Shown here: positions 38,866 to 58,469 of the stretch, in pieces | How the letters are laid out: each line of letters begins with the position of its first letter | Numbering within the stretch: position 1 is the first letter of the stretch | Source of the DNA: a virus | Virus record (IMG/VR): IMGVR_UViG_3300012922_000001 | Span: 1 to 64,000 of that record | Reading direction: 5' to 3' (one strand) | Length of the DNA: 64,000 bases | Translations under genes and position numbers: made by a program | Notes under the pieces: model-generated | The model's input: the letters and a program-made list of their open reading frames with translations, nothing else | Databases searched by the model: none | What the model was told of the DNA's origin: nothing

Positions 38866-39444
38866 ATGTTGATTGAGCAAGGGGAAGTTGAGAATTTAGG
38901 CGAAAAGCCGTGGGCTGGCATTGAGTTGACCAGCGACACACGCATCGAAGAAGCTGTCCTGCACATTGGGACTTGGGCTAGGCAGTTTTTGAAGGGCGAG
39001 CCGTTCCAATTGCTGTTTCCCATCCAAACTCGCGATCTCGGCGGCGTAACAATGCTGTCTCCCTACCTGATGGCGAGAACTCTGGACTTGAAGAAGCTGA
39101 AGAAGATCGGCTCGATCCGCGGCGTGCAGGGTTTGGAGTGCGATGAGCGTGGCCGGGTGTTTGAGATTGACAACACGTTCGTCCAGCAGGTGCGAGAGCG
39201 CGCCGAGAAGGCCCAGCAGTCGTGGAGTGAGGGAATTTCGGTAGGATCATTCGTCCGGTGCCTAGTTGGGAGCGGCCGGATGCTCTGCGGCAACGTGGAA
39301 TGGCGGGATGAGACGCACGCTCGAGTCCGTGTTGAGCTTTTGAGCCGGGATATCGTGGTCACCTGTCCGATTCGGACGCTGTTGAACCTTGGGGATGTTC
39401 CAGAAGAGAAGCGCACATATTTTTACGTGCCGGGGTTGCTGTGA
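38866..39444 (+). CDS. NusG/RfaH-like protein (NGN + KOW), antitermination factor candidate
   Basis: 192 aa. The NGN-like part is PWAGIELTS ... LLFPIQTRDLGGVTMLSPYLMAR ... IRGVQGL. The KOW-like part is VGSFVRCLVGSGRMLCGNVEWRDETHARVRVELLSRDIVVTCP. Confidence 0.5.
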   Translation: MLIEQGEVENLGEKPWAGIELTSDTRIEEAVLHIGTWARQFLKGEPFQLLFPIQTRDLGGVTMLSPYLMARTLDLKKLKKIGSIRGVQGLECDERGRVFEIDNTFVQQVRERAEKAQQSWSEGISVGSFVRCLVGSGRMLCGNVEWRDETHARVRVELLSRDIVVTCPIRTLLNLGDVPEEKRTYFYVPGLL

Positions 39445-40181
39445 AGCCGTACTACGAACATGCCGGGATAACGATCTACCATGGTGACTGCCGGGGTATT
39501 CTTCCCGCGATCGACAACTCAGCGCCGATTTTTGCCGATCCTCCTTACGGAGAAACTAGTCTTGAATGGGACACATGTTGCGAAGGTTGGCTTCATGGCG
39601 TGACGTCGACGTGCCTCTGGTGTTTCGGGTCATTCCGGTTTTTCATGGCAAATGCTGCCGAATTTTCAATTTGGGAATTTGCGCAGGATGTTGTCTGGGA
39701 GAAGCAAAACGGGAGCGGTTTTACTGTCGATCGATTTAACCGAGTCCATGAACTGGTTACTCAATGGTATCGCGGAAAATGGTCAGATCTGCGTCACGAA
39801 GTTCCCCGCTCGCCTGTTAAGAACTGGAAGCGTGCCCATAGAACAGAAAATCGTGGTGCCACGCCACATCGTGGAGGAATAACCACTGCGCCTTGGCAAG
39901 ATGATGGATTTCGATTAGAGAGATCCGTGATTTACGAGCGCAATTGCCACACTCCCAGCGGAGCGGAGCACCCGACACAGAAACCGATCCAACTTCTACA
40001 ACGCCTTATTTCTTACTCAGTGCACGAAGGAGAAGTAGCGATCGACCCCTTTATGGGCAGCGGTACAACGCTCCTCGCGGCAAAACAAATAGGCAGGAAG
40101 GCCATCGGAATCGAAATCGAGGAGAAATATTGTGAGATAGCGGCAAAACGGCTTAGCCAAGAGGTCTTTGATTTCGCATGA
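39441..40181 (+). CDS. DNA methyltransferase, beta-class N6A/N4C (DPPY)
   Basis: 246 aa. Motif IV IFADPPYG precedes motif I VAIDPFMGSGTTLLAA, and the N-terminus ITIYHGDC is typical of the family. No cognate nuclease is seen. Confidence 0.85.
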   Translation: MKPYYEHAGITIYHGDCRGILPAIDNSAPIFADPPYGETSLEWDTCCEGWLHGVTSTCLWCFGSFRFFMANAAEFSIWEFAQDVVWEKQNGSGFTVDRFNRVHELVTQWYRGKWSDLRHEVPRSPVKNWKRAHRTENRGATPHRGGITTAPWQDDGFRLERSVIYERNCHTPSGAEHPTQKPIQLLQRLISYSVHEGEVAIDPFMGSGTTLLAAKQIGRKAIGIEIEEKYCEIAAKRLSQEVFDFA

Positions 40182-42142
40182 GGATAGCTCTCGTCACTTC
40201 TCTCGAAGGCAAGGGGCTCCAAGTCGATGCCGAACTCGTGCAAGGCCTCTTGCAAACGTGGGGGCACGAGGCAGAATTGATTGCCTACGATCAACCGTGG
40301 CCCGGCGGCGAGTTTGATCTTGGAATCTGCTTCGAAGTAGTCGTTCCTAACCTTTTTGCACAGATACCGCGCTGGTTCTGGTTCCCCAACTGCGAATGGC
40401 TCAAGCCGGAGATGGTAAAACCGGCACAGAAGTTCGATTTGATCCTCGCGAAGACGCGCGCGGCCGAAACCTCACTCCTCCAGTCCTTCCCCAACGTGGT
40501 TTACACCGGATTCCTGACGCGAGACCAATATGACGGCACCGTGGCGCGAGAAAAGCGGTTTTTACACATTGGCGGGGCCGGAGGTTACCGGAATACGCCT
40601 GCTGTGATTGCCGCCTGGCGCGAATATCGCTATTGGAACGGAACTGAGGCGGAAAGCGCAGAATTGACGATCGTGAGCCGGTCGACGACGGTCACTTTCG
40701 AGGAAACGCCGGGAATCACGTTCATCAAACGCGCGACCGACGAAGAAATCAAGCGTTTGCAAAATTCTCACCTATTTCACCTCTATCCGAGCGCGGCAGA
40801 GGGCTGGGGGCACGCGCTGCACGAGGCTGAAGGCGTTGGAGCCATTCTTCTGACGGCCGATGCCGCTCCAATGAACGAAATCGACGCTCCATTCTTCATT
40901 CCCGCGACCAAAATCAGGCAGGAGAACCTCGCGACACTCTACAGCGTGAATCCGGCGCATATCCGCGAAGCCGTGCCGAAGATGATGGCGCAGACACAGG
41001 TGGAAATCGAAACTCGGCAGTGGGCGGCACGCGATCGCTTCGAAATGGGCAATGCGGAGTTCACGAAGCTGTTTTGGCCGCTGTTGGCTGCGCCGGTCCC
41101 AACGAGCAAGACGAAGCCATGCAAGTATGGTGATGTCACCTGTCCATGTCAAGATGGAGACCCATGCCACTATGAAGGGGAAAACCCGATGACGCCTCCG
41201 CGCAAGGAAGCGCGCACACAGAAGGCTCGCATCGCCCTACTCGGCAACTTTGGTCCCCCGCACTCGACAGAGAACGATTTAGCGTGGACGCTGCGTGACA
41301 TGGGACATGATCTTCTGAAGTTTCAGGAAAACAAAGTTATGACCGAGCAGATTCTTGAGGACTGCAAGCAATGGGGCGTGGATCTTCTCTGTTTCGTGCA
41401 TACCCACGGCTGGAACACGCCTGGTGTCATGTCGCTGGACGAACTATGGCAGCAGTTGAGACGTCATGGAGTCAAGACGTGTTCTTTTCACCTTGATAAA
41501 TATTGGGGGCTAAACCAGAACGACCATCGCGAAGATTTAATAGGGCGGCACGCCTTCTGGAAAACTGATGCCGTGTTTACTGCCGATGGCGCGGACCATC
41601 CATGGCCGAAGAGATTGGTCAACCACTATTGGCTCCCGCCTGGAGTCGTAGGCCGCGATTGTATTCCGGGACAGTACCGGGATGATCTGGCAGTGGACGT
41701 TGGATTCGTCGGGGCCCGTTCGTATCACCCAGAATATCCCTTCCGCGGAGAACTGATTTCATTTCTGGAGCAAACTTATGGAGATAGGTTCCGTATCTTC
41801 AGTGGTTTTCGCGGACAAGTGCTCAATGATTTGTATGCATCCATGAAAATATGTGTGGGCGATTGTTGTTTTTCTGGAGAGCCTAATTACTGGAGCGACC
41901 GGCTTCCAGAAGCGTGCGGACGCGGAGCATTTTTATTGCATCCACAAATCGAAGGCATGTGTATTCCTACAGCTACATATGTTCCTCGAAGCTTGGACGA
42001 TCTTCGCCAAAAGATAGACTATTATTTGGAACATGATGAGGAACGTGAGTTGATCCGCAAGGCTGCACATAAGCATGTTGCGGAACATGATACTTATCAC
42101 AACCGGATGAAAGCCCTTCTGGAAATTACGGGAGTCTCATGA
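40178..42142 (+). CDS. two-domain glycosyltransferase (GT4-like GT-B core + CgeB/DUF3880-like C-terminal domain)
   Basis: 654 aa with an E-x7-E segment (EGWGHALHE). The C-terminal half (RIALLGNFGPPHSTENDLAWTLRDMGH ... DVGFVGARSY ... YWSDRLPEACGRGAFLL) resembles CgeB-type GTs. Confidence 0.7.
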   Translation: MRIALVTSLEGKGLQVDAELVQGLLQTWGHEAELIAYDQPWPGGEFDLGICFEVVVPNLFAQIPRWFWFPNCEWLKPEMVKPAQKFDLILAKTRAAETSLLQSFPNVVYTGFLTRDQYDGTVAREKRFLHIGGAGGYRNTPAVIAAWREYRYWNGTEAESAELTIVSRSTTVTFEETPGITFIKRATDEEIKRLQNSHLFHLYPSAAEGWGHALHEAEGVGAILLTADAAPMNEIDAPFFIPATKIRQENLATLYSVNPAHIREAVPKMMAQTQVEIETRQWAARDRFEMGNAEFTKLFWPLLAAPVPTSKTKPCKYGDVTCPCQDGDPCHYEGENPMTPPRKEARTQKARIALLGNFGPPHSTENDLAWTLRDMGHDLLKFQENKVMTEQILEDCKQWGVDLLCFVHTHGWNTPGVMSLDELWQQLRRHGVKTCSFHLDKYWGLNQNDHREDLIGRHAFWKTDAVFTADGADHPWPKRLVNHYWLPPGVVGRDCIPGQYRDDLAVDVGFVGARSYHPEYPFRGELISFLEQTYGDRFRIFSGFRGQVLNDLYASMKICVGDCCFSGEPNYWSDRLPEACGRGAFLLHPQIEGMCIPTATYVPRSLDDLRQKIDYYLEHDEERELIRKAAHKHVAEHDTYHNRMKALLEITGVS

Positions 42143-42999
42143 AAACGAACGTGATCTGGTACCCACACGATAGAATCACCTGCTCGGCAGCGACGATGTT
42201 CAACGAGATGCTTGATCTCTACGACGTCAATCACTGCAACGGTTTCGGCAACGTCCCTTTGGATGCTCGCGGAGCCGTCATCGTATTCCACGGCCAACAG
42301 AACGCACAGAAGCCGAACATCGGTGAGCGCCTGACGCGATATTCAAAAGAACTGGACTGGGTGATTTGGGTGTCGATCGGAGATGAAGGATGCGACTTCC
42401 CCTACGGTGACTTTGACCATCGGCGCCAGTATCTCTGGGTCCAGACGCCAAAGCCCGGCAAAGTGGCCGCGGATCGCTACTTAATCGAGGGCTACCATCC
42501 AAATACGCGAGTATTGCTGGCAAGAGTTCAGGATTCGCCGCGGACCTTGGATTGGTTCTTTGCTGGGCAGATTAACCACGAGCGCCGCCAACAGTGCAGC
42601 GATGCTCTCAGGAGCGTTCCTAATGGGCTGCTGATAGGAACTGAAGGATTTATGCAGGGAGTCTCTCAGGAAGAGTATTACGACCGAATGAAGCAAGCCA
42701 AGATCGTTCCGTGCCCAGCCGGGCCTCTGACGCCGGACAGCTTCAGGTTCTGCGAAGCACTTGAGGCCGGCTGCATCCCGATTCTGGACGCCTACAGTCC
42801 AGATCACATCCCTAACTACTGGGATATGGTCATCCCTGGGCATCCGTTCCGAGTAGTCGAAGACTGGAGCATGCTACCGCAGGTGATGGATGAGATTCTC
42901 GCGGACTACAGGCAAAATCTGCGGCGTGCGGAGTACTGGTGGCATTACGAAAAGCTACGCTTTAGGCAGTGGCTGAAGCAGGACATGGATTCCTTATGA
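42139..42999 (+). CDS. exostosin/GT47-like glycosyltransferase candidate
   Basis: 286 aa. KIVPCPAGPLTPDSFRFCEALEAGCIPIL matches the conserved C-terminal exostosin-family block from memory. Confidence 0.5.
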   Translation: MKTNVIWYPHDRITCSAATMFNEMLDLYDVNHCNGFGNVPLDARGAVIVFHGQQNAQKPNIGERLTRYSKELDWVIWVSIGDEGCDFPYGDFDHRRQYLWVQTPKPGKVAADRYLIEGYHPNTRVLLARVQDSPRTLDWFFAGQINHERRQQCSDALRSVPNGLLIGTEGFMQGVSQEEYYDRMKQAKIVPCPAGPLTPDSFRFCEALEAGCIPILDAYSPDHIPNYWDMVIPGHPFRVVEDWSMLPQVMDEILADYRQNLRRAEYWWHYEKLRFRQWLKQDMDSL

Positions 43000-43127
43000 G
43001 AATTTGGATGGCTATCAAGCTACGCGACATGGCGTTCTGGTTGTTGGGTTATAAAAGTTTCGGGGGCGCCAATTATGTCCCTGGCATTGATGACGAGTGT
43101 ATTGTCTTTTATGGACGAAAGAGATGA
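42996..43127 (+). CDS. 43-aa micro-ORF, coupled on both sides
   Basis: ATGA overlaps at both ends. My translation is MRIWMAIKLRDMAFWLLGYKSFGGANYVPGIDDECIVFYGRKR. Confidence 0.35.
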   Translation: MRIWMAIKLRDMAFWLLGYKSFGGANYVPGIDDECIVFYGRKR

Positions 43128-43690
43128 ATCGTCTCTGTGAACTCGCCTTAAAGTACGGCACTGACAAGACCCCATACTGGAACAACTGCACCGGCCACTG
43201 CTACACGCCGTTCTACGAGGACTTGCTGCGCGGGCGGGAGATCAAGAACATCTTGGAGATCGGAATCTGCACTGGCGCTAGCCTGCGCATGTGGGAAGAG
43301 TACTTTCCGGAAGCGAAGATTTGGGGCATTGACATTGATCCGAATGTGCTTTTCGATACGGATCGTATCAAAACGTTTCAGTGTGACGCAGGAGACGAAG
43401 ATGACCTCATGAAATTTGAGGAAAGTGTTGGCTTGGATTGGGCGGACTTTGACTTAGACCTGATCATCGATGACGGATCGCATCTAGTCAAAGATCAAAT
43501 TATTGCTGCGCGCTGGATGATTCCGACTCTGTCGGAGAAGGGCCTATACGTGATCGAAGACGTCCAGCAGGGTACAGAGGAAGAAATCGCGTCCAAGATT
43601 GGATGTCAGCACCACATCGTCTATCCGACGTCGAATGTGGCACCGCATCGGTCGGACGATTGCTTGATCGTCGCTTGGAGAACGGAATGA
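43124..43690 (+). CDS. class I SAM-dependent methyltransferase
   Basis: 188 aa from the ATG at 43124. It has YGTDKT..., motif I ILEIGICTGAS, WGIDID, and LIIDDGSH. Confidence 0.7.
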   Translation: MNRLCELALKYGTDKTPYWNNCTGHCYTPFYEDLLRGREIKNILEIGICTGASLRMWEEYFPEAKIWGIDIDPNVLFDTDRIKTFQCDAGDEDDLMKFEESVGLDWADFDLDLIIDDGSHLVKDQIIAARWMIPTLSEKGLYVIEDVQQGTEEEIASKIGCQHHIVYPTSNVAPHRSDDCLIVAWRTE

Positions 43691-43776
43691 CGGGCGCCGA
43701 TTTGCTGTCAATCGCGATACTAGCTCTGGTTGCTAGTTTGATGTTGTGGCTGTCAGAAAAATCGGAGGATGAATGA
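43687..43776 (+). CDS. 29-aa hydrophobic micro-ORF
   Basis: ATGA overlaps at both ends. Translation is MTGADLLSIAILALVASLMLWLSEKSEDE (one TM-like helix). Confidence 0.3.
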   Translation: MTGADLLSIAILALVASLMLWLSEKSEDE

Positions 43777-44369
43777 ACGAGCCGACGAAGCCCGAAGTCT
43801 GCATTGCTACCTCCACATGCCCGCGTCCGGATCGCTGGCGCTGCTACGACGATCAGGCGACGGAGGTTGAGGTTCTCGACTTCCTCTATGCGCTAGTGGT
43901 CATGCTAAAGCCGGATCGCGTGTTGGAGACAGGTTGCTACTACGGGTATGGAACAGAGCGCTTGGCGCGTGGATGTCGAGATAATGGATTCGGCACAGTT
44001 CTGACCTGCGACGTTGGTTCGGACCCAGTTAATAAAACGATTGCTCGCCTAACCGAGAACGGTTTGATTGCTCACGCAATAGTTTTGCAGTGTACGGGGC
44101 TTGCCTTAATCGAAATGGATATTCCAGGAAATATAGGACTTTCCTTCCTCGATTCCGGTCCCGACGAGAACCGCGTTGACGAACTCCGCGCCGTGTTGCC
44201 GAAGATGACGCCGGGCGGAGTGATTGCTATCCACGACACAGGCATCCACGGATTTTTGCGCGAAAAGTACCTTCCCCCGGCGCTGCGAGAACTCGGCCTG
44301 CAATTCATTTTCTTCGATACACCGAGAGGCATCACCCTCTGCCGCAAGCAGCCGGAGATTTACCCATGA
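43773..44369 (+). CDS. class I SAM-dependent (O-)methyltransferase
   Basis: 198 aa with VLETGCYYGYGTERLA, LSFLDSGPD, and GGVIAIHDT. Confidence 0.7.
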   Translation: MNEPTKPEVCIATSTCPRPDRWRCYDDQATEVEVLDFLYALVVMLKPDRVLETGCYYGYGTERLARGCRDNGFGTVLTCDVGSDPVNKTIARLTENGLIAHAIVLQCTGLALIEMDIPGNIGLSFLDSGPDENRVDELRAVLPKMTPGGVIAIHDTGIHGFLREKYLPPALRELGLQFIFFDTPRGITLCRKQPEIYP

Positions 44370-44545
44370 AGAATGCAGGAATGTTGCTGAATACAGTCGC
44401 TTGGGTCACAGACCGCAAGTCGGTTCTCTACTGGATTGAAAAGGAAATTGACCAACTTCTTGATGGTTCAACCACGGGCTGCTTCATTGTTAAGCTGAAG
44501 GGGCCGATGAGCAGTGATGAAGTAGCGGCAGAGGAAATCACATGA
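44366..44545 (+). CDS. 59-aa hypothetical protein (below the track size cutoff)
   Basis: ATGA overlaps at both ends. Translation is MKNAGMLLNTVAWVTDRKSVLYWIEKEIDQLLDGSTTGCFIVKLKGPMSSDEVAAEEIT. Confidence 0.4.
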   Translation: MKNAGMLLNTVAWVTDRKSVLYWIEKEIDQLLDGSTTGCFIVKLKGPMSSDEVAAEEIT

Positions 44546-45207
44546 TCCCTGTGACCGTGATAATCACCACGTCGCCCCGCCCGAGTCACCCGAGCACGCG
44601 CATCATCGACGAGACGATTGCCAGCGTGCGTGAGCATTTTCCGGATGTGGGAATCGTGATTACCTGCGATGGGCCGATTGAGTACGGTACGCCATACAAT
44701 GATTTTTTCCGTCAAATAGTAACAAGACGCGATCCTGTCTTCGCGTCTCTGGGTGGCCATATTCATCAGAGCGGCATGATGAATATGGCGCTCGATGTCA
44801 TAAAAACCCCATTGATTCTCTATGTCGAGGACGATTGGAGCATCCTGCCAAATATCGAATGGGAGGCCCTAGCCAAGACGATTCTCGATGGAGCGGCCAA
44901 CTACATCCGCCTCTATGCCGCCAAGCGTATCCATCCCTGCCATGAGCCGATGATGCGCGAGCGCCTTTATCTCAATGGCGTGCCCTTCGTGAAGACGGTG
45001 CAATTCTCGGCCAATCCGCACCTGGCTTCGACAAAGTGGTATCGCAAGATCGAAGAGCAACATCTTCGCGGGAAGTGCGATTACATCGAGAACATTTTGC
45101 ACGGCCCAATTGGCGGAGCGCCGTGGGAAGAGTACAAGCTGATGATCTACAACCCGGAATTTGGGGATTTCAATCGTGTTCTACATTTGGACGGAGACCA
45201 ACCGTGA
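44542..45207 (+). CDS. GT-A fold glycosyltransferase-like protein
   Basis: 221 aa. IPVTVIITTSPRPSHPS (Rossmann-like start) and a DxD-like LYVEDDW. Confidence 0.5.
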   Translation: MIPVTVIITTSPRPSHPSTRIIDETIASVREHFPDVGIVITCDGPIEYGTPYNDFFRQIVTRRDPVFASLGGHIHQSGMMNMALDVIKTPLILYVEDDWSILPNIEWEALAKTILDGAANYIRLYAAKRIHPCHEPMMRERLYLNGVPFVKTVQFSANPHLASTKWYRKIEEQHLRGKCDYIENILHGPIGGAPWEEYKLMIYNPEFGDFNRVLHLDGDQP

Positions 45208-45824
45208 GTGATGTAAAAATTGTTGTCCTCAGTCGGTACGCCGACCTGTTCACTGGGTTCTATAACAACGTGAATTTGATGGAGCCGCGCACCGGCAAGC
45301 TGCTCGTTAGAGACGGTGACGAGATTGATTACGACTCCTTGCGCCTATCTGGTGGCTGGGATGTGTGCTTCGGGAAATCTCCATTCGTCTATGCCGCAAA
45401 CGTCAACCACGGCTGGGACGCATACTGGAAATCTGATGTTATCCTCTGCGGCGACGATATCCGGTTCGATGAACCGTTCGTCGAGAAACTTCAGTATGCA
45501 GCCTATTCCGATGAGAAAGTAGGTGTGTCCACAGTGCAGCTCTGGGGGCAGAGCCCCTTCGTTTGTGGATATTTTAAGCGCCACATCATCAACGCAGTCG
45601 GGCCCATGGACGAACGCTTCACCGGTTATGGTAAGGACGACGTTGACTGGTGCCGTCGAATGGAAGACCTGGGCTATGTGACGTTGCCCACGGAGATCAA
45701 GGCCAGGCACTCGGGAGGCACATCATTCGTCCGCCGCGCGAAGGAATTGGGTACGAGCATGGAAGCGCTGTGCAACACAAACAACGAACTCTACGATGAA
45801 AAATGGACACCAAAGACTGTGTAG
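45204..45824 (+). CDS. glycosyltransferase family 2-like protein
   Basis: 206 aa from the GTG at 45204 (GTGA overlap). It has ILCGDDIRF and FTGYGKDDVDWCRRMEDLGY (a GT2/GalT-like C-terminal block). Confidence 0.55.
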   Translation: MSDVKIVVLSRYADLFTGFYNNVNLMEPRTGKLLVRDGDEIDYDSLRLSGGWDVCFGKSPFVYAANVNHGWDAYWKSDVILCGDDIRFDEPFVEKLQYAAYSDEKVGVSTVQLWGQSPFVCGYFKRHIINAVGPMDERFTGYGKDDVDWCRRMEDLGYVTLPTEIKARHSGGTSFVRRAKELGTSMEALCNTNNELYDEKWTPKTV

Positions 45825-45969
45825 CGCCTGCGGGAAGAGGCCGCCAAAGTATCGGCATCTGTGCCTCGATGGGAAGACTCGCCTCAAGTCGCGAGACAAT
45901 CATGATCTCTGCTTGGAATGCTTTCGAGATGAGAAGAATCGGCAACGGGAGGCAGAGTGCGCGAAATGA
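45796..45969 (+). CDS. 57-aa zinc-ribbon protein (below the track size cutoff)
   Basis: My translation is MKNGHQRLCSACGKRPPKYRHLCLDGKTRLKSRDNHDLCLECFRDEKNRQREAECAK. Its stop overlaps the GIY-YIG start (ATGA). Confidence 0.4.
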   Translation: MKNGHQRLCSACGKRPPKYRHLCLDGKTRLKSRDNHDLCLECFRDEKNRQREAECAK

Positions 45970-46697
45970 AGTTTTACACCTATCTCTGGCTGCGTGAAGA
46001 CGGGACGCCCTATTATGTCGGGAAGGGGAAAGATCGACGTGCATTCAAATCTAGGAGAATAGGTGATGCACCTCCTAGGGATCGCATTATCATAGAAGAG
46101 TTTTTCAATGAAGAATCTGCTTTCGAAGCAGAAAAATTCCTGATTTCGTATTACGGTCGTGAAGATATGGGATTGGGGTGTTTATTAAATTTAACGGATG
46201 GTGGTGATGGTATGGACAATCCCTCCGCCGATACTAGAAACAGAATGAGATTAGCTCACGAGGGGAAGTCTCTTTCTCGGGAGCACGTACTACGCGTAGC
46301 TGAAAGCAATAGGGGTAAAAAACGATCAAAAGAATTCTGTGAATTTCAAAGTCGATTGCACAGCGGACAAATAATAAGCGATTCTCATAGGAAGGCAGTA
46401 AGTGAGTCAAATAAGAGACGTGTGGTTTCCGAAGAAACACGTAAGAAAATAAGCCTTGTTCATCTTGGAAATAAGTACATGACGGGCAAGGAATTGTCGG
46501 TTGTAACTAGAACAAAAATGAGCGAATCTCACCGTAAGAGGTTTGATAACGCGAGAGGATGGAAATTTCATAAAGGTAGAAATAAACCATATCAGGCGAT
46601 CATATCTGTAGTGGGAGTCAGCAAAAGCTTGGGTTACTTTTTTAGTGCTAACGATGCCCACGTTGCATATCGAAAGGCGGTCGAATGCGCGAGATAA
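45966..46697 (+). CDS. GIY-YIG homing endonuclease with NUMOD3-like repeats
   Basis: 243 aa. FYTYLWLREDGTPYYVGKG is followed by repeated S-x-x-x-R-x-K-x-S units (SADTRNRMRLAH, SDSHRKAVSES, SEETRKKISLVH, VVTRTKMSESH). It sits in a conspicuously AT-rich pocket. Confidence 0.8.
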   Translation: MKFYTYLWLREDGTPYYVGKGKDRRAFKSRRIGDAPPRDRIIIEEFFNEESAFEAEKFLISYYGREDMGLGCLLNLTDGGDGMDNPSADTRNRMRLAHEGKSLSREHVLRVAESNRGKKRSKEFCEFQSRLHSGQIISDSHRKAVSESNKRRVVSEETRKKISLVHLGNKYMTGKELSVVTRTKMSESHRKRFDNARGWKFHKGRNKPYQAIISVVGVSKSLGYFFSANDAHVAYRKAVECAR

Positions 46698-47593
46698 TAA
46701 TTGTTCCGACTTTTCAGAGGAGCGAATTGTTATATTGCTGTTTAGAGGCTATTAGGCAAGCCGATCCTATTGCGGAGGTGCACGTTTTCCCAGACCGTGG
46801 AACCAAAGAACTCGATGTCTGCAACAAGTTCGGGGCCACTCACCATTTGACTTTTGTCCACGGATACCACGGGAACTCGTTCAATGTCTGCGAGGCCTTG
46901 AAGTGGGCTTCGACTCAGGCTCCGGCGACGGTTTACGTTGTTGAAGACGACGCAATTATCGACAAAACGTTCTTCTCTTGGTGCCGAACGGCCTTAGTGA
47001 AATTCCCACAAGCTTTCGCCGCTTGTGGCTGGAAGTATTCTCCCGATGCCATTATCGGCACGTGGTCTGCGCCGGACATGTTGCTGGCGTGGTATCTATC
47101 GGTCTGCGCAGCCCTTCCGTGGTCATCGGTCCAGAGCATTGCCCAGCACGCCCGACCCGATTACTACGAGAACATGAAGGACTACCTCGACAAGGCCTAT
47201 CCGACTTCAACCAAGCGCGGGACTCAGCATTTTGAGCAGGACGGTCTCTGCTATCGCGTTATGGAATCCGAGTCAAAGCGCTGTGTCTGGCCGCGCCTGC
47301 CACGCGCGACCCACGTTGGCTACCATGGATATCATCAAGGCGGAAAGGCCCTAGAGGGCACGTTTGAAGAGCGCGTGTATCTCACGAAGCTGGCGATCAA
47401 GAAACCGGGAATCCTCGCAACGTTGATGAATGGCGGATCGACTTTGCGCATGGGAAGATGTTCGACTTGTAAGGCGTTGCTCGCGGTCGACCGGCAAGAC
47501 CTGACGGCAATATGCTCTGAATGTTTTCACTCCAAGCATCCCAATCTTGCGGTTACGTCGGATTCTCACTACTATCTTGGCAAGGGAGCCTAA
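46685..47593 (+). CDS. GT-A fold glycosyltransferase-like protein with C-terminal zinc ribbon
   Basis: 302 aa. IIIVPTFQRSELLYCCLEAI, a DxD-like YVVEDDAII, and a C-terminal CSTC ... CSEC. Confidence 0.5.
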   Translation: MREIIIVPTFQRSELLYCCLEAIRQADPIAEVHVFPDRGTKELDVCNKFGATHHLTFVHGYHGNSFNVCEALKWASTQAPATVYVVEDDAIIDKTFFSWCRTALVKFPQAFAACGWKYSPDAIIGTWSAPDMLLAWYLSVCAALPWSSVQSIAQHARPDYYENMKDYLDKAYPTSTKRGTQHFEQDGLCYRVMESESKRCVWPRLPRATHVGYHGYHQGGKALEGTFEERVYLTKLAIKKPGILATLMNGGSTLRMGRCSTCKALLAVDRQDLTAICSECFHSKHPNLAVTSDSHYYLGKGA

Positions 47594-47781
47594 TGGCGAA
47601 ACGCATCGAACTCACTCGCGAAGAGTATCGGAAGAAAACAGGGATCACTCCACAGCCGGATTCAATCGGAGCCATCTTTTGCAACGCGGCCCGCGATCGC
47701 GTATTGATTGAGTTTGTCTTCAAAGATGGCTCTGAAAGAGACGACCTTGAGCGTCTCGGCCGCTTGGTGGACCCGCGATGA
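47593..47781 (+). CDS. hypothetical protein
   Basis: 62 aa from the ATG at 47593 (TAATG overlap). Confidence 0.4.
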   Translation: MAKRIELTREEYRKKTGITPQPDSIGAIFCNAARDRVLIEFVFKDGSERDDLERLGRLVDPR

Positions 47782-48362
47782 ACCTGACTGCGGCACAAGA
47801 CGAAATGCGCTCGCGCGCGGTCGGTAAAGAAGTGCAACTCAATAAAGCAGGACGGCGCTGGGGTGGAGACAAGGGCGGAAGGTATAGGTTGGACATGGAG
47901 CCCTCCGATCCGCTCTACGAGATGCTCCCGGTGCCGGAAAAGATCGAAGAGCTGAAGTGGAAAGCGCCCAAGGCATACGAGATGCCGCTTACCATGCGTA
48001 GCACTGGCATCCAGGAATCGCTGAAGTTGTCCCACTCCACGATCGTGCGCCAGTTTCTTTTGGACGAACGCAAGTCTCAATGCGATCGCCAGGGCCGCAA
48101 CCGATTCTTGCAGCTCCTCATGAGACTGCATGAGATTGGCATGAGTAAGAGTCCGCAGGCTGTAGCGGCAATCAATGCGCTTTTGGATCGCGGCTTCGGA
48201 AAGATTAAGCCGAGCGATGAGGAAATAGAACTGAACAAGAACCGCGGCTACAAGGTAGTCCACATCCACAGCGTGCAGGGGAATATCCCGGTCGAATCCG
48301 ATCAGCCTGCCTTGCCGCCAGCCCCTCAGTTTCTTGAGGCAGAATTTGGAGAGCGAGAATGA
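47778..48362 (+). CDS. terS: terminase small subunit candidate
   Basis: 194 aa immediately upstream of terL. The INALLDRGFGK motif is common in small terminase subunits, from memory. Confidence 0.5.
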   Translation: MNLTAAQDEMRSRAVGKEVQLNKAGRRWGGDKGGRYRLDMEPSDPLYEMLPVPEKIEELKWKAPKAYEMPLTMRSTGIQESLKLSHSTIVRQFLLDERKSQCDRQGRNRFLQLLMRLHEIGMSKSPQAVAAINALLDRGFGKIKPSDEEIELNKNRGYKVVHIHSVQGNIPVESDQPALPPAPQFLEAEFGERE

Positions 48363-48610
48363 GCGGCGGAAGCTATATCGCAACGAAAGACGAACTGAAA
48401 AGTGTTGCTCTGGATACCGAAGCGGGAATGGATGAACTCCGGGCGGCGCACAACAACAATGCGGCTGTCTTGAATCTGCATCGGTTTCTGCTCGAGAAAT
48501 TCATCCCTGCCGGTCTTCTGGAATCTGCGTGCAACGAATGGCACGCCATTCAAATGAAGATGATTGAAGAGGAGCGCGCAAAGGCCAATGGCCCTCACGC
48601 TCAAGCCTAA
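48359..48610 (+). CDS. hypothetical protein
   Basis: Track ORF of 83 aa, lying between terS and terL. Confidence 0.4.
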   Translation: MSGGSYIATKDELKSVALDTEAGMDELRAAHNNNAAVLNLHRFLLEKFIPAGLLESACNEWHAIQMKMIEEERAKANGPHAQA

Positions 48611-50249
48611 AGAACTCAAAATCGAGTACGCCTTCCAAGAGTCTCAGACGAGGCTCTTTAAGTATGTCAGCAGACAAGGCCATTCCTACCTTCAGCACAT
48701 TGCTCCTCAGGACCTAGAAGTTGGCGGCCAGCGCAGCGGAAAAACCACTGGCGCCCTGATGTTTGGCATCATCAACTACTGCCTAGCCTTTGCCCATTGT
48801 GACATTCTCGTTCTCCGACGCACGATCCCAGAACTTGACGCCGGCGTCATCCAGGACTTCAAGAAGTTCGTTCCAGAAGAGCTTTATGATTTCAATCACA
48901 CAACGCGCATTGCTAGGTTCAAAGAGAATGGCTCCAGAATCGTCTTCGCCGGTTGCGCGAATAACGTAGAGCGCGACATTGAGCGGTACCTGGGCCAAGC
49001 CTATCCCTACATTTTGGTCGATGAATGCGCGCAGTTTAGTCCTGACGTGTGGCAGCGTCTCTATGCCCGTAACTTGGTGAATGCGGCTTGCGAACCCGAT
49101 AAATTTGGAAATCTTCCGATACCGGAAATCGTAGGCTGTACGAACCCGATTGGTGCGCACTGGGCCTTCTATCACACGCAGTTTGTGCTCAAGGAACCGA
49201 TGGAGCGCGAAGAGGGGGCACGCAAGGCCAAAGATGGTTCTTGGTGGGTGCTGGATGCTGGTGAGTGGCGCTGCATCTACAATCCCAAGGATTACGCCTC
49301 GAATCACACAACTGTCTTCGACAACGCCGCCTATCTAAAGCGTGATCCAGGCATCGTGAACCGTCTGCGAGCTCTGCCGAAGGCGAAGATGAACAAATTC
49401 CTGCTTGGTCTAATGGATCGGCAGGAAGGGCAGTATTTCGATTGCTGGAGCGATGATTATCATGTCATCGACCTACGCGAAGACCCGGAAGCAATCATTT
49501 GGCAGGATTGGCAGCCTGTCTGGGGTGGTCAGGACTGGGGCGTCGGCCACTGGAATGCTTTCTATCTATTCACGAAGGCGCTGGTGAGGCGATCGATCGG
49601 CGATGATTATCTGACCAAAACCGTGTGCTTCAAGGAAGTGGCGCCGGAGACCACCGGGCACACGAACATCGCTTTTGCCGACATGATTCAGGCGGCAGCT
49701 TTTTACCCTAAGCTTCCGGAAGAGCATCCGCAGCATTCTCGTATCTCAGGCAAGCCGTGTAAGGTTCGCGCCATCTACTTCTCTCACGAAAAATTCTCGC
49801 GAGTGATGGAAGCGCACTCGCCGGCAGACGACTACTCAAGACTGCTTCGGGCACGCGGCCTGCCGCCGGTATCGCGTGGAACCACGGATCGTATTGGCTC
49901 GGCATCCTATACGTACAATCAATTAAAAATCGGCCGTCTCGTTGTACTCAAAACCTGTGCTGGCATAATCCAAGCCTTCCCGCAGCTCATGCGGAATCCG
50001 CAGGAATTGGATGATGTTCTCAAAACGAACACTAAGGCTGACGACCGCTACGACGGATTCCGGCTCGGTCTCTATGGTGAATTCAAGGCTCGCGGAACTC
50101 CGGAGATCGAAGCCGTCAACGAGTTCGAGAAGAACATGGAACCACTCGCGCGCTACATCCACGCCCACAAGAAGAAATACGAACTCGCGCACGCGAAGGA
50201 TTCGTTTAGACAAAAAGAGGTGCCTCTATGGCAGGCGAAATTGCAGTAA
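48564..50249 (+). CDS. terL: terminase large subunit
   Basis: 561 aa. Walker A is GGQRSGKTT and Walker B is YILVDECAQF. The nuclease-domain-like block is GGQDWGVGHWNAFYLF. The start may be the ATG at 48588. Confidence 0.85.
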   Translation: MKRSAQRPMALTLKPKELKIEYAFQESQTRLFKYVSRQGHSYLQHIAPQDLEVGGQRSGKTTGALMFGIINYCLAFAHCDILVLRRTIPELDAGVIQDFKKFVPEELYDFNHTTRIARFKENGSRIVFAGCANNVERDIERYLGQAYPYILVDECAQFSPDVWQRLYARNLVNAACEPDKFGNLPIPEIVGCTNPIGAHWAFYHTQFVLKEPMEREEGARKAKDGSWWVLDAGEWRCIYNPKDYASNHTTVFDNAAYLKRDPGIVNRLRALPKAKMNKFLLGLMDRQEGQYFDCWSDDYHVIDLREDPEAIIWQDWQPVWGGQDWGVGHWNAFYLFTKALVRRSIGDDYLTKTVCFKEVAPETTGHTNIAFADMIQAAAFYPKLPEEHPQHSRISGKPCKVRAIYFSHEKFSRVMEAHSPADDYSRLLRARGLPPVSRGTTDRIGSASYTYNQLKIGRLVVLKTCAGIIQAFPQLMRNPQELDDVLKTNTKADDRYDGFRLGLYGEFKARGTPEIEAVNEFEKNMEPLARYIHAHKKKYELAHAKDSFRQKEVPLWQAKLQ

Positions 50250-51061: not shown

Positions 51062-51246
51062 TGCCATCCGTCAGCCAAGCGCAAGGGCGCTTCTTTCGGT
51101 GGGCTGAACATGATCCTGCGCAGGCCAAGAAAGAAGGCGTCGATATGACACATGAGCAAATGCACGAATTTGCTGTGACGCCGGATGCGGGCCTGCCGGA
51201 ACGCAAGACCAAGAAGTTCTCCCACGCCAGTAAACGGAGCCAGTGA
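51061..51246 (+). CDS. DUF3008-like small protein
   Basis: 61 aa. MPSVSQAQGRFF ... HEFAVTPDAGLPE follows the S-x-AQ-x-R ... EFA-x-T ... LPE pattern I associate with that family. Confidence 0.4.
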   Translation: MPSVSQAQGRFFRWAEHDPAQAKKEGVDMTHEQMHEFAVTPDAGLPERKTKKFSHASKRSQ

Positions 51247-51737
51247 TGCCGTCAGGGGTTTATGTTCGAAAAGAAAGCGTATTGCAAATGCTACGCACTA
51301 GAGTCAAGTTAATAGCTGGCACTGGCGCAAGGCCTAAGCAGACGCATTGCCAAAACGGGCATGCTCTCATAGACGGCAATCTTTATTGGAAGAAAAACGG
51401 TAAAGCCCGCTGTTGTAAGACGTGTGTTCTAGCGAAAGGCAAAAAGAAAAGAGAACTTTTCCCTGATGAAGAAAAGAAGCACGCTCGCCGGAGTAGGCTC
51501 TTGCGAAATGGTTGGACCCCCGAGGAATATATTGTTGCTTTTGCTCTTCAAAACGGGGTTTGTGCTATTTGTAAAAAAGCTGAGACGGTTGGCTATAACT
51601 TACGTGCGGACCATGATCACGCTACCGGAAATAAAAGAGAACTATTGTGTCACCGTTGCAATGCAGCGATAGGGCTTCTTCGAGAGCATCCGGAAATTTG
51701 TCGAGCGGCAGCTGATTACATAGAAAAGCACAAATAG
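51243..51737 (+). CDS. endonuclease VII-type (His-Me finger) homing endonuclease
   Basis: 164 aa. An N-terminal Zn loop (THCQNGH ... CCKTC) is followed by CAICKK ... LRADHDHATGNKRELLCHRCNAAIGLL. It sits in a low-GC pocket. Confidence 0.75.
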   Translation: MMPSGVYVRKESVLQMLRTRVKLIAGTGARPKQTHCQNGHALIDGNLYWKKNGKARCCKTCVLAKGKKKRELFPDEEKKHARRSRLLRNGWTPEEYIVAFALQNGVCAICKKAETVGYNLRADHDHATGNKRELLCHRCNAAIGLLREHPEICRAAADYIEKHK

Positions 51738-55818: not shown

Positions 55819-56256
55819 ATGTCAGGAACAATCGCAACCGACGCAACTCTTTCAGCAACCGGGACCATTACTCTTTCAACCGTAGCGCCACCCCGAATCG
55901 CCGCGACTTATACAGGGAATGGCGTAATCTCTCAAAAAGAAGGCACGGTTCTCATAAGTTCCGCTACTGGTGGACTTGCTCTTACTCTTGCGACCCCAAC
56001 GAGCGGTACGGATGATGGGAAAGTTCTTCGGATCGTTGATGTAACACCCAATGGGAGCGGTGGAAGCGCAAATACGATTACTACTTCAAATGACTCCTAC
56101 GGAGACAGCGGGAGCGGGCAGTCAGCATGGAATGAACTGGCATTTAACACTGCCACCGATGGTTTCGGTTTTGTCGCTGAACTTTTTGCCTATGCCGGCC
56201 ATTGGTATCTCATCGACGCTTCGTCTAGCACGCGGCTCAATCTCTACTACAACTAG
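55819..56256 (+). CDS. Thr/Gly/Ser-rich small head-module protein (decoration candidate)
   Basis: 145 aa with SD GGAGG upstream. No motif recognised. Confidence 0.4.
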   Translation: MSGTIATDATLSATGTITLSTVAPPRIAATYTGNGVISQKEGTVLISSATGGLALTLATPTSGTDDGKVLRIVDVTPNGSGGSANTITTSNDSYGDSGSGQSAWNELAFNTATDGFGFVAELFAYAGHWYLIDASSSTRLNLYYN

Positions 56257-56258
56257 CC

Positions 56259-56831
56259 GTGAATCTTGCGAACGCTCTCAAAATTGATGGCTGGATGAAC
56301 GATGCCGAGCTTTTATGGCTAGCTCGACAAGCATCGTGTCATGGCATGATCCTTGAAATAGGATCATGGAAAGGCCGTTCAACGAGAGCGTTCGCAGATC
56401 ACACTCCTGGCCTGGTTTACGCGGTGGATATGTGGGAATCTTCTCCTGCGGGATGGATGGATCCAGCTACTTACACAAAAGCCATATTGCAGAAGCGGCC
56501 TGAGGATTACATTTTCCAAATCTTTTGCGACAATCTCAGGTCTCACATCGAAAGTGGCAAGGTTCATCCAATTAGAAAATCCTCTATCGAGGCAGCCGAA
56601 GAGTGCATTCTGTGGTTCGATCTCATCTTCATCGACGCCGCCCACGATTATGAAAGTGTGGCACGTGATATCACTATTTGGAGTGGAAAATTACTTCCGG
56701 GTGGACTTTTATGCGGTCACGATTATTCCGAGCATTGGCCCGACGTGATGAAAGCGGTTGATGACGCGATTCCTCATCGAAAAGTGGTCCCCGGAACCTC
56801 CATCTGGTATGCAAAAATTGCGACTGTGTGA
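56259..56831 (+). CDS. class I SAM-dependent methyltransferase (Methyltransf_24-like)
   Basis: 190 aa with a GTG start. It has ILEIGSWKGRST, LIFIDAAHDYESV, and GGLLCGHDY. Confidence 0.65.
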   Translation: MNLANALKIDGWMNDAELLWLARQASCHGMILEIGSWKGRSTRAFADHTPGLVYAVDMWESSPAGWMDPATYTKAILQKRPEDYIFQIFCDNLRSHIESGKVHPIRKSSIEAAEECILWFDLIFIDAAHDYESVARDITIWSGKLLPGGLLCGHDYSEHWPDVMKAVDDAIPHRKVVPGTSIWYAKIATV

Positions 56832-56984: not shown

Positions 56985-58352
56985 ATGGCCATCGCAAGTC
57001 CCAACCCATTGCTCGAGGCAGCCGTCGAGTCCATTGAAATTGAACAATTTGCAGAGCAGATCCCGGATCTAGTGTTCCACGGGACCACCGGCTACAGCCT
57101 TTTCAAGCAGAAAGCCCACACTGTCAAAATCTCGAATGAAACCAGCGCCGGCGGCACCGCGCGGCCCCCGTTCCGCATTCCGTTCCGGGTGCAGTCCGGC
57201 TCGGCCATCACGCAGGGTACTGGTAATGGCGATTCGATCGGCCGCGGTAGCGGTTCACAATGGCAGTCGTTCGCGGTTGCTCCTGTCTACGTGTACAACG
57301 TCTGCGAAATTTCTTGGTTGTCGCAGCAGTCCACGAACGGCAAAGAGCGCGGCCTGTTTGAAGTGAAGGCCCAGGAGATGAAGAACTCGCTTGACTCTGC
57401 GATGCAGGGGCTCGAGGGGCTCGTCAACTCAGACGGCAGCGGCATGTTGGATCAGATTCCGACCACCGCGACTGTTAACAGCGGCACCGGCCCGGTAGGT
57501 CCTGGATTCTCGTCCATTGTTGGACTTAACATCGCCGCAGCTTTCAGCGATCAGCAGAATGTGACCGTTTACCCCACGGAAACCTCTGCCTCCCCCCGCG
57601 GATCCTTCACCATCAGCTACATCGATCCGGTGACCCAGACGATCTATTCGGCGACGGCTCTGCCTTCGACCGGCGGTGCTACCCAGACCGGCGATTACCT
57701 GTTCATCTACAACAGCGGAACCGCATCTGGAGCTGCTTCGGCTTCGATCCTTGGGATCAAGGCTTGGCAGATCAATGCCAATACGGGAACCATTGGCGGC
57801 TTGAATCGCGCCAGTTTCCCCGGCCGCATCTCAACCCCGACCATCAACCTTGGCGCCTCAGTCTCCGCCGGCCTCTCGCCGCGTGCGCTGACGCTCCTCG
57901 GCCGCGCCCTCGGCCCCGACGCTCCAGCCATCAAGTCGATGATTTGGTACACCGGATCCGACCAGGGCTACGCCATGGCCAACCTTCAGTACAACGTCAA
58001 CTTGGAGATTCGCTCCAGGGTTACTGGCGACAAAACCGAAGACATGGCCTACAAACTCTTCCAAGACACGTTCGGCGGACGCCCGCTGCACATCTCTTGG
58101 ACGGCTACCCCCGGCCGCATCGACGGACTCGTCATGGACAACTGGTACCTCGGCGAACTCGAGCCGCTGGAGCTTTACGATTTCGGTGGAGGGGCTGTCG
58201 TCATGCCTGTACCTGACATACCTGTAAGTCCTACAGGTCAGAATACTTACTTAAGCAGCCACATGTTCAGCTACGTCTGTAGCTGGAACTTAATAAATGC
58301 TGCCCCCAGAAATTCTTTGTACGTCTCAAATTGCACGCAGCCAGTTATCTGA
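56985..58352 (+). CDS. major capsid protein candidate
   Basis: 455 aa in the position after portal and scaffold. It is followed by the clearest intrinsic terminator in the window. Confidence 0.6.
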   Translation: MAIASPNPLLEAAVESIEIEQFAEQIPDLVFHGTTGYSLFKQKAHTVKISNETSAGGTARPPFRIPFRVQSGSAITQGTGNGDSIGRGSGSQWQSFAVAPVYVYNVCEISWLSQQSTNGKERGLFEVKAQEMKNSLDSAMQGLEGLVNSDGSGMLDQIPTTATVNSGTGPVGPGFSSIVGLNIAAAFSDQQNVTVYPTETSASPRGSFTISYIDPVTQTIYSATALPSTGGATQTGDYLFIYNSGTASGAASASILGIKAWQINANTGTIGGLNRASFPGRISTPTINLGASVSAGLSPRALTLLGRALGPDAPAIKSMIWYTGSDQGYAMANLQYNVNLEIRSRVTGDKTEDMAYKLFQDTFGGRPLHISWTATPGRIDGLVMDNWYLGELEPLELYDFGGGAVVMPVPDIPVSPTGQNTYLSSHMFSYVCSWNLINAAPRNSLYVSNCTQPVI

Positions 58353-58450: not shown

Positions 58451-58469
58451 GTTCGTAGTGGAGGCGTTG

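Follow-up and report, generated by a model that had tools for sequence, protein, structure and literature searches.

To our knowledge, glycosylation of the virion by phage-encoded enzymes has been shown in a few mycobacteriophages only. The mycobacteriophages Che8, Corndog and Myrna are described as decorating capsid and tail-tube subunits with their own glycosyltransferases (GTs), which alters antibody recognition (Freeman et al. 2023, as summarised in PMC12363180). In the chlorovirus PBCV-1, the glycan of the capsid protein Vp54 is made by soluble cytoplasmic GTs, including the three-domain proteins A064R and A111/114R and the exostosin-like A075L, together with methyltransferases that act on terminal rhamnose (PMC9614988, PMC11571054). 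The subject of this report is a 7.4-kb island at positions 40178-47593, + strand, of a 64,000-nucleotide stretch of viral DNA (IMG/VR record IMGVR_UViG_3300012922_000001, positions 1 to 64,000; referred to as the window), which encodes six GT domains in five proteins and two sugar-type S-adenosylmethionine (SAM) O-methyltransferases. With slightly better than even confidence, these enzymes are held to assemble a methylated oligosaccharide in the cytoplasm on the virion proteins of the phage, the capsid being a more likely acceptor than the fibres; the acceptor itself we infer.

The window is part of a 68.4-68.6-kb metagenomic contig (Logan SRR6266850, ENA ERZ27253175) originating from an uncultured tailed phage. 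The island had been described in an earlier note made from the sequence alone, called the original prediction here, and its open reading frames (ORFs) are all present on the + strand at the coordinates given there. The genes of the island and those that flank or complement it are the following.

39441..40181, + strand: DNA N6/N4 methyltransferase with a DPPY motif (PF01555 9.5e-34, phrog_67 3.9e-47); flanking context outside the glycan pathway
40178..42142, + strand: GT654, predicted two-domain GT-B protein of 654 amino acids (aa) (PF13524, phrog_28745)
42139..42999, + strand: GT47/GT114-like compact GT-B protein, 286 aa (RXYLT1_C, Exostosin_GT47, AlphaFold2 (AF2) model)
43124..43690, + strand: MT1, predicted class I SAM methyltransferase of the MycE/TylE type (PDB 3ssm, 8ia9)
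43773..44369, + strand: MT2, Methyltransf_24 class I SAM O-methyltransferase (PF13578)
44366..44545, + strand: ORF of 59 aa with an ATGA overlap at either end; no family match
44542..45207, + strand: GTA1, predicted GT-A family without a Pfam model (AF2 model and Foldseek)
45204..45824, + strand: GTA2, predicted GT-A protein related to beta4GalT7 (GT7) (profile match to PDB 3lw6); GTG start in a GTGA overlap
45957..46697, + strand: GIY-YIG/NUMOD3 homing endonuclease (phrog_314 1.4e-19, NUMOD3 1.1e-5)
46685..47593, + strand: GTA3, predicted GT-A protein related to GnT-I (GT13) (Glyco_tranf_2_3, GnT-I profile)
47593..50249, + strand: overlapping small ORFs of 62, 194 and 83 aa (candidates for the small terminase), followed by the large terminase TerL at 48564-50249 (identity to annotated terminases)
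56259..56831, + strand: MT3, outlying third Methyltransf_24 protein (PF13578, phrog_2675 3.8e-16), just upstream of a probable major capsid gene at 56985-58352

GT654 is predicted to be a fusion of a GT4-like N-terminal half and a CgeB-like C-terminal half. The C-terminal half (about aa 345-654) matches PF13524 (Glyco_trans_1_2) over aa 526-649 (5.4e-14, 52.8 bits against a cut-off of 25) and phrog_28745 (6e-29). For the N-terminal half there is a weak match to Glycos_transf_1 (PF00534-type; E 0.006, 16.6 bits against a cut-off of 26.4), and many homologues carry a precomputed PF00534 match. Within the E-x7-E motif EGWGHALHE, residues E208, G209, G211 and E216 are invariant in 32 homologues. 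A total of 110 homologues were found at 31-57% identity, mostly on contigs of up to ~120 kb and in one case on a 332-kb phage-like contig; a sequence-profile search of GT654 against the PDB returned no relative. The two halves occur as separate genes in the Streptomyces phages Satis (gp53) and Yara (gp28). The GT47-like protein matches RXYLT1_C (4.5e-6) and Exostosin_GT47 (1.8e-5), in both cases below the Pfam cut-off (26.7 vs 27 and 24.7 vs 33.4), and the majority of the 269 members of its family have a precomputed match to PF24785 and/or PF03016. Its AF2 model (pLDDT 95.9) has a GT-B fold, for which the GT47 domains of EXT1/EXT2 are the best PDB matches in Foldseek (2.8e-5, TMq 0.50-0.55); A075L of PBCV-1 comes behind them at rank 7 (E 1.8e-4, TM ~0.4). 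When the sequence profile of this protein was searched against the PDB, A075L was the best match, with an E value of 0.008 and over the C-terminal domain only.

The other three GTs are of the GT-A type. GTA1 has no match in Pfam, PHROGs or NCBIfam, the last of which gave nothing informative for any island protein, and no sequence-profile relative in the PDB. A profile search found 307 GTA1 homologues; the 120 of them that were listed all lack a precomputed Pfam domain and all lie on contigs of 110 kb or less. The AF2 model of GTA1, built from an alignment of 41 sequences (pLDDT 92.1, pTM 0.91), points clearly to a GT-A family without a Pfam model: its Foldseek matches are the GT-A enzymes B4GALNT1 (2e-8), SpsA (2.5e-8), GnT-I, RmlT and TarS/TarP, and its highest TMq is 0.66, to ppGalNAc-T2. 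Among predicted viral structures, generic GT2-like matches alone were obtained, at 17% identity or less. The family has an invariant E96-x-D98 in the DxD position and the N-terminal motif TSPxPSHPST. GTA2 and GTA3 are assigned as GT-A proteins by their sequences. GTA2 matches phrog_2456 (3.9e-6) and, as a profile, PDB 3lw6 (beta4GalT7, 7.4e-4), its GDD motif is invariant, and it is restricted to the closest relatives among the loci examined. GTA3 matches Glyco_tranf_2_3 (4.5e-6) and, as a profile, GnT-I/GT13 in the PDB (5.1e-5); E87-D-D89 is invariant, and the copy in the window has a C-terminal CxxC...CxxC segment.

The start of MT1 was taken as 43124, the mechanically delimited ORF beginning at a GTG at 43097. 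MT1 is predicted to be a methyltransferase homologous to the MycE/TylE deoxysugar O-methyltransferases, with profile matches to PDB 3ssm (2.4e-13) and 8ia9 (demethylmacrocin O-methyltransferase, 5.1e-12) and to phrog_21658 (1.1e-23). We take 3ssm to be MycE and both of these enzymes to be deoxysugar O-methyltransferases. MT2 matches PF13578 (4.2e-11), with weak matches to RMNT_CmcI and Methyltransf_3 and to O-methyltransferases in the PDB, and it is conserved at 53-73% identity in four other loci (L003, L006, L035, L083; L-numbers are labels of the fetched viral or phage-like loci). MT3 lies in the head block, between a Ser/Thr-rich ORF of 145 aa (p145, 55819-56256), for which even the nearest relative shows no conservation, and the probable capsid gene p455 (455 aa). 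Homologues of MT3 at 42-46% identity are found inside the GT island in L035/L087, L098, L101, L102, L110 and L126, and directly after TerL in L007, L008 and L074.

These results bear out the enzyme types named in the original prediction. The 654-aa protein with a GT4-like and a CgeB-like domain is supported by a PF13524 match above the cut-off and by the invariant E-x7-E residues, and the exostosin/GT47-like protein by its GT-B model, by EXT1/EXT2 as top PDB matches and by the PF24785/PF03016 matches of its family. Three GT-A proteins with DxD-like motifs are likewise supported, GTA1 by its model and GTA2 and GTA3 by sequence, with the acidic residues invariant, as are two class I SAM methyltransferases in the island, MT1 by PDB profile and MT2 by PF13578. 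The prediction had proposed Pfam hidden Markov model searches and structure prediction with Foldseek; together with the PDB profile searches, these support GT and methyltransferase families, and GT folds for the two proteins modelled (GTA1 and the GT47-like protein). Its count of about six GT domains and three methyltransferases stands for the GT domains; the third methyltransferase of the sugar type is encoded away from the island, at 56259-56831.

The island is not a one-off. It is a variant of a widespread viral module, the core of which recurs in 55 viral or phage-like loci. In IMG/VR, a scan with GT654 as a single-protein query returned one locus, and an alignment-based scan returned 78 loci. 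The neighbouring genes of relatives were clustered and annotated through one representative per cluster, which gave the following counts.

CgeB-like GT: 83 loci
GT47-like GT plus GTA1: 55 loci
FkbM methyltransferase: 50 loci
GT4-like GT: 36 loci
GTA3: 26 loci
NAD-dependent sugar epimerase/dehydratase: 17 loci
GT2/GT7C-like GT: 11 loci

The core triad of CgeB-like GT, GT47-like GT and GTA1 is present in 55 fetched loci, whose GC content ranges from 0.32 to 0.69 and which include contigs attributed to Actinomycetota, Bacillota, Bacteroidota and Gammaproteobacteria. In all 55 the module genes lie on a single strand (median span 5.8 kb), in 21 the GT47-like protein and GTA1 are fused into one ORF, and in 39 an FkbM or Methyltransf_24 methyltransferase is present. 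The closest relatives of the window phage, with TerL 56-70% identical (L001-L003, L005, L006, L035, L060), carry the island in synteny directly upstream of TerL. Relatives with TerL 46-55% identical and at least ~6 kb of sequence upstream of TerL have no island gene there, and several of them from contigs of 60-109 kb (for example L017, L019, L021, L023, L034, L036, L037 and L064) were also absent from the results of the GT654 scan.

GTA1 is confined almost entirely to viruses. When 185,579 species genomes were scanned with a single GTA1 pattern, six loci only were found, including one in Nocardia sp., one on a 'Mycolicibacterium moriokaense' scaffold and three on contigs of metagenome-assembled genomes; the order CgeB-like, GT47-like, GTA1 is the same in all six, and some at least are phage-like. 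The Nocardia locus additionally has an FkbM methyltransferase, DUF4417, an extra GT and an HNH endonuclease, and the triad in this isolate is possibly a prophage. The Nocardia and 'Mycolicibacterium' loci gave no megablast match to phages. Among 50,697 GenBank phage records, no tblastn match was found for GTA1, GTA2 or the GT47-like protein, and the halves of GT654 and GTA3 matched Streptomyces phages only.

On the 'Mycolicibacterium moriokaense DSM 44221' scaffold_14 (L168, QQBJ01000015.1) the GT triad is accompanied by a portal gene at a GC content of 0.505, which is far below the expectation for Mycolicibacterium; the stretch in question probably comes from a phage or another foreign source. 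The 332.5-kb contig_128715 of ENA ERZ25039587 (L082) encodes GT654, the GT47-like protein, a Methyltransf_24 protein, GTA1, more GT-methyltransferase fusions and an SNF2 helicase. Phage-like genes only were seen in the 22 kb examined, and the contig possibly represents a jumbo phage with an enlarged module.

The neighbours of the module, where they can be named, are head, packaging or tail genes. In the window phage and in L001-L003, L005, L006, L035 and L060 the module lies directly upstream of terS/TerL, and in L093-L095 it lies upstream of TerL-portal-p455, the TerL of these loci being just 31% identical to that of the window. A different arrangement is seen in another phage lineage (L134, L135, L142, L143, L146, L151, L156, L157 and L162), where the portal gene (phrog_2662) is followed by an HK97 capsid gene (PF05065, 2e-41), the CgeB-like GT and then FkbM and/or GT4. 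In these nine loci, eight of them distinct, the CgeB-like GT starts ~260-450 nt past the capsid ORF; since the capsid proteins are only 43-76% identical, the adjacency of capsid and GT is conserved over considerable divergence. The module is found 2-4 kb upstream of the portal gene in L118, L122, L147 and L168. In Satis, gp53 (the N-terminal half of GT654) and gp54 (GTA3-like) are adjacent, with the genes for the tail assembly chaperone and tape measure protein following closely downstream, and in Yara the GT (gp28), a hypothetical protein and a methyltransferase stand at the end of the structural and lysis block.

Precomputed and fresh Pfam matches, which together span the whole 68-kb contig, show no nucleotide-sugar enzyme, no Wzx, Wzy, WaaL or Gtr-type membrane protein, and no thymidylate-synthase homologue, TET/JBP or C5 DNA methyltransferase. 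The absence of nucleotide-sugar, polytopic membrane and base-hydroxylating enzymes, noted in the original prediction, is supported by these contig-wide matches, and none of the island enzymes has a transmembrane-like segment. In the mechanism proposed here, the five soluble proteins with their six GT domains would add sugars singly from host nucleotide sugars to a cytoplasmic acceptor. Two or three SAM O-methyltransferases, one MycE/TylE-like and the rest of the Methyltransf_24 type, would act next, methylating and probably capping the sugar chain. The acceptor would most likely be a virion structural protein, with the capsid favoured over the fibres, and the released particles would carry a coat of methylated oligosaccharide. 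The donor sugars, the sequence of reactions and the advantage to the phage are, like the acceptor, matters that we infer. The epimerase/dehydratase carried by some relatives hints at a deoxyhexose in the glycan, and shielding from antibodies, proteases or adsorption is suggested as the benefit by analogy with mycobacteriophages and chloroviruses.

Several observations favour a virion protein as the acceptor. Because the conserved core spans very different hosts (locus GC 0.32-0.69), the acceptor is expected to be independent of the host; and because linkage to head and packaging genes recurs, the families are almost virus-restricted and the prerequisites of DNA glycosylation are missing, a virion protein is preferred. 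The position of MT3, beside the probable capsid gene here and inside the GT island in relatives, counts for the same reading, as do the predicted activity of all island enzymes in sugar or sugar-methyl transfer and the fact that, among proteins of solved structure, the GT47-like protein is nearest in sequence to PBCV-1 A075L, a xylosyltransferase of the capsid glycan (PMC11571054). The original prediction had likewise proposed a methylated oligosaccharide on virion proteins, with fibres described as extremely Thr/Ser-rich as the most plausible acceptor. The virion part of that proposal remains the best reading and is strengthened by the head-gene linkage, but the fibre part is unsupported: the Ser+Thr content of the fibre proteins is 20-26%, which is ordinary for fibres, and fibres as the acceptor on the ground of Ser/Thr content were rejected. 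It also seems quite possible, though somewhat short of probable, that the module represents a widely distributed and so far unrecognised pathway for virion glycans in tailed phages, distantly related to the chlorovirus machinery. Its core would be a CgeB-like GT, a GT47/GT114-like GT and the new GT-A family, mostly accompanied by a sugar O-methyltransferase and in some cases by a nucleotide-sugar epimerase/dehydratase, and it would place a conserved methylated oligosaccharide on capsids in hosts of 32-69% GC.

A number of points weigh against decoration of virion proteins. The evidence for the acceptor is gene neighbourhood and is circumstantial, and DNA-modification clusters too can adjoin terminase and structural genes (10.1101/2023.12.21.572611). 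A DNA methyltransferase flanks the island upstream, and its homologues lie near the module in 13 loci. The protein p455 (56985-58352) is probably the major capsid protein, as judged from position, conservation and a weak DGSG motif; neither a PDB profile search nor a profile-profile comparison with PF05065-type capsids supported this identity, and p455 of island-carrying relatives differs from that of island-lacking relatives by small Ser/Thr-rich loops, with no clear acceptor tail. The five GT proteins have no tblastn match to any mycobacteriophage in the 50,697 GenBank phage records, and the link to A075L is weak (E 0.008; Foldseek rank 7, TM ~0.4). Many early genes of the contig are unannotated, and an unrecognised partner enzyme could be among them.

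The same enzymes could in principle serve other acceptors. On the inside of the membrane, the soluble GTs and methyltransferases might modify the lipid-linked precursors of a host surface polymer such as O-antigen, teichoic acid, capsule or S-layer glycan, and such remodelling of the host envelope would block superinfection or keep progeny from sticking to debris. The original prediction had concluded from the missing membrane proteins that the acceptor is cytoplasmic, a step that does not hold, because soluble phage GTs such as TarP act on lipid-linked intermediates and a host glycan could be their target. TarP is a soluble, prophage-encoded GT that modifies wall teichoic acid, a precedent by which transmembrane segments are not needed for lipid-linked acceptors, and the GTA1 model fits the cell-wall GT-A enzymes TarP, TarS and RmlT almost as closely as it fits GTs acting on proteins. 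A temperate lifestyle is conceivable, as the contig encodes a small serine recombinase (PF00239), and the triad is present in the genome of a Nocardia isolate, possibly as a prophage. Nevertheless, remodelling of the envelope is judged rather unlikely. The same core is found across 32-69% GC and on contigs attributed to Actinomycetota, Bacillota, Bacteroidota and Gammaproteobacteria, groups whose surface polymers share little, and GTA1 is almost absent from cellular polysaccharide loci. Six GT domains suggest that a whole chain is assembled, as opposed to changes made to a chain already present. Pfam revealed no membrane partner of the Gtr, Wzx/Wzy or acyltransferase type on the contig, and the module lies in late head/packaging operons, not in a position typical of lysogenic conversion.

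DNA is also a host-independent acceptor and would fit the wide range of GC content. A methylated oligosaccharide could be placed on a modified phage base after replication and before packaging, where it would shield the genome from restriction or CRISPR. With a DNA methyltransferase gene on one side and the terminase genes on the other, the island may be switched on shortly before packaging, and N6/N4 methyltransferase homologues lie near the module in 13 loci. The GTs that glycosylate phage DNA are a varied set of GT-A and GT-B proteins capable of making di- and trisaccharides (10.1101/2023.12.21.572611; PMC13326640). Yet the described routes need a hydroxylated base, obtained through a thymidylate-synthase homologue or through a C5-methyltransferase with 5mYOX/TET and normally encoded together with the GTs, and no such enzyme was found in contig-wide Pfam matches or in the annotatable recurrent neighbour families, although unannotated ORFs could hide a novel one. 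The sole DNA methyltransferase, a PF01555 protein with a DPPY motif, is predicted to be an amino-methyltransferase and not a C5 enzyme, and a capsid gene directly precedes the CgeB-like GT in 8 distinct phages. We know of no description of sugar O-methylation for DNA glycans, and DNA as the acceptor appears very improbable. Also highly doubtful are some other cytoplasmic acceptor, whether a non-structural phage protein or a host protein (for example flagellin, pilin or a defence protein), and the making of a free or lipid-bound methylated oligosaccharide, which would be comparable to mycobacterial polymethylated polysaccharides. The majority of the neighbouring genes lack annotation, and flagellin glycosylation islands, as far as they are described in PMC4875605, pair soluble GTs with FkbM-type methyltransferases; but host proteins and metabolites fit poorly with conservation across very different hosts, the repeated adjacency to capsid, portal and terminase genes would be left unexplained, and in the neighbour clustering no candidate acceptor gene co-varies with the module.

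The gene overlaps in the island reflect tight operon packing. Nine junctions separate the DNA methyltransferase from GTA3, and six of them are overlaps (ATGA at four, GTGA at one and one of 13 nt), including the ATGA by which the DNA methyltransferase gene overlaps the first GT gene, and overlaps go on downstream of GTA3 as TAATG and ATGA. The near-universal overlap described earlier is therefore correct for these six junctions but not for the other three, which are gaps of 82-132 nt. Overlap coupling as a peculiarity of the island was ruled out, as similar overlaps are common throughout the contig. The only interruption, as had been stated, is the low-GC GIY-YIG gene (GC 0.428 vs 0.548 for the window), which is a mobile insertion between GTA2 and GTA3 and stands outside the pathway. 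None of the relatives has it in the island, their GTA2 and GTA3 genes overlapping directly (by 4 nt in L003), and its homologues in relatives are located elsewhere, e.g. directly after TerL in L019 and L021.

A tblastn search among relatives with the 59-aa ORF (44366..44545) returned itself alone, it has no Pfam or PHROG match, and in L003 MT2 and GTA1 overlap directly without it. The small ORFs between GTA3 and TerL have no family match, and the 194-aa ORF upstream of TerL is kept at the same place in relatives. A hydrophobic, uncalled ORF of 29 aa at 43687-43776 has an ATGA overlap at each end and is not conserved in relatives; it was considered as a membrane partner and rejected, as it is neither conserved nor called as a gene. 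Another uncalled ORF, of 57 aa at 45796-45969, encodes a zinc-ribbon-like CxxC...CxxC pattern, bridges GTA2 and the GIY-YIG gene and is also not conserved in relatives. A scan for promoters and terminators gave counts no higher than the shuffled expectation.

The source phage has no close relative in blastn of the island and tblastn of TerL against the 50,697 GenBank phage records. TerL (48564-50249) is 22-26% identical to annotated Arthrobacter phage terminases by tblastn in this set and 46-70% identical to TerL of 80 IMG/VR loci. Other genes of the contig encode an M15 endolysin, DnaB, RusA, the small serine recombinase (PF00239) and GroES/GroEL, and its large structural ORFs matched next to nothing in Pfam or PHROGs. 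GroES (PF00166; phrog_3188) and a full-length GroEL (536 aa; PF00118; phrog_5725 8e-129) are encoded at 59284-61339 within the morphogenesis block, a pair that is unusual in a phage of ~68 kb. Four free-standing genes of the homing-endonuclease type are present (16085-16630, 45957-46697, 51243-51737 and 58458-59294), one HNH, one GIY-YIG and two Endonuclease VII-like. In several relatives the TerL match spans 2.3-2.5 kb and not 1.7 kb (L035 9254-11761; L060 4639-7122; L067 10001-12328), which suggests an intron, intein or endonuclease insertion inside the terminase gene.

If virion proteins are indeed the acceptor, phage glycosylation pathways exist that are far more elaborate than those known, with six GT domains and methyl capping, and a conserved three-enzyme core would be common to many uncultured phage lineages across very different hosts. 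Elaborate self-glycosylation of the virion would then be common in environmental phages and not a curiosity of actinobacteriophages, and a GT-A family would be added beyond the coverage of Pfam, PHROGs and NCBIfam. A glycan coat on virions matters for the stability and adsorption of phages, for grazing or immune recognition and for phage engineering, and the soluble, compact enzymes of the island are candidates for glyco-engineering. Parts of the module are found in cultured Streptomyces phages (Satis-like and Yara-like) and in an isolate of Nocardia, which makes the question testable.

Various known systems share features with the island, each with its own differences. In DNA hypermodification clusters (T-even glucosyl-5hmC, RB69/DLP3 arabinosyl-5hoC and the MT/5mYOX glycans), serial GTs build mono- to trisaccharides and may neighbour terminase or methyltransferase genes (PMC13326640; 10.1101/2023.12.21.572611). 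However, those clusters need base-hydroxylation enzymes, which were not detected on the contig, and sugar O-methyltransferases are not known there. GT654 ends in a domain of the CgeB-type Glyco_trans_1_2 family, and SpsA of Bacillus is among the best structural matches of GTA1. Both CgeB and SpsA act in the mother-cell cytoplasm on the surface of a proteinaceous particle, but they are cellular sporulation enzymes and the similarity is limited to a domain or fold. Satis gp53 is ~34% identical to the N-terminal half of GT654 and gp54 is 27-29% identical to GTA3; in Yara gp28-gp30, gp28 is ~28% identical to the CgeB-like half and is followed by a hypothetical protein and a methyltransferase. Unlike the window phage, neither phage has a GT47-like or GTA1 gene, their proteins are annotated merely as 'glycosyltransferase', and both are cultured and hence possible experimental proxies. 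We know of no functional data for the GTs of Satis or Yara, and a search of the literature on CgeB/FkbM phage modules and Satis GTs found no functional description.

The mycobacteriophages resemble the window phage in that it encodes its own GTs on a contig with terminase, endolysin and structural-size ORFs. They differ in that the five GT proteins of the island are not relatives at the tblastn level, and in that this island has six GT domains with two or three methyltransferases and adjoins the packaging genes. The original prediction had found no described system to match, which is too strong a claim in view of PBCV-1, whose methylated capsid glycan is the work of multi-domain soluble GTs, one exostosin-like GT and a pair of methyltransferases (PMC9614988, PMC11571054). 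In mode of working, PBCV-1 capsid glycosylation (A064R, A061L, A075L, A111/114R) is the closest described analogue, an analogy that stops short of membership in that system. In both cases the GTs are virus-encoded, soluble and cytoplasmic without signal peptides and include multi-domain proteins of ~640-860 aa and an exostosin-like compact GT-B of ~280 aa, separate class I SAM methyltransferases act or are predicted to act on terminal sugars, and the genes are clustered. PBCV-1, in contrast, is a eukaryotic giant virus with N-linked glycans on a double-jelly-roll capsid protein, whereas the phage acceptor is a presumed one; homology is marginal for one enzyme (E 0.008) and undetected for the others, and PBCV-1 has its own nucleotide-sugar enzymes, of which the window has none. 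In view of these likenesses and differences, the island is judged to encode a new form of virus-encoded virion glycosylation, with a virion protein as its putative acceptor.

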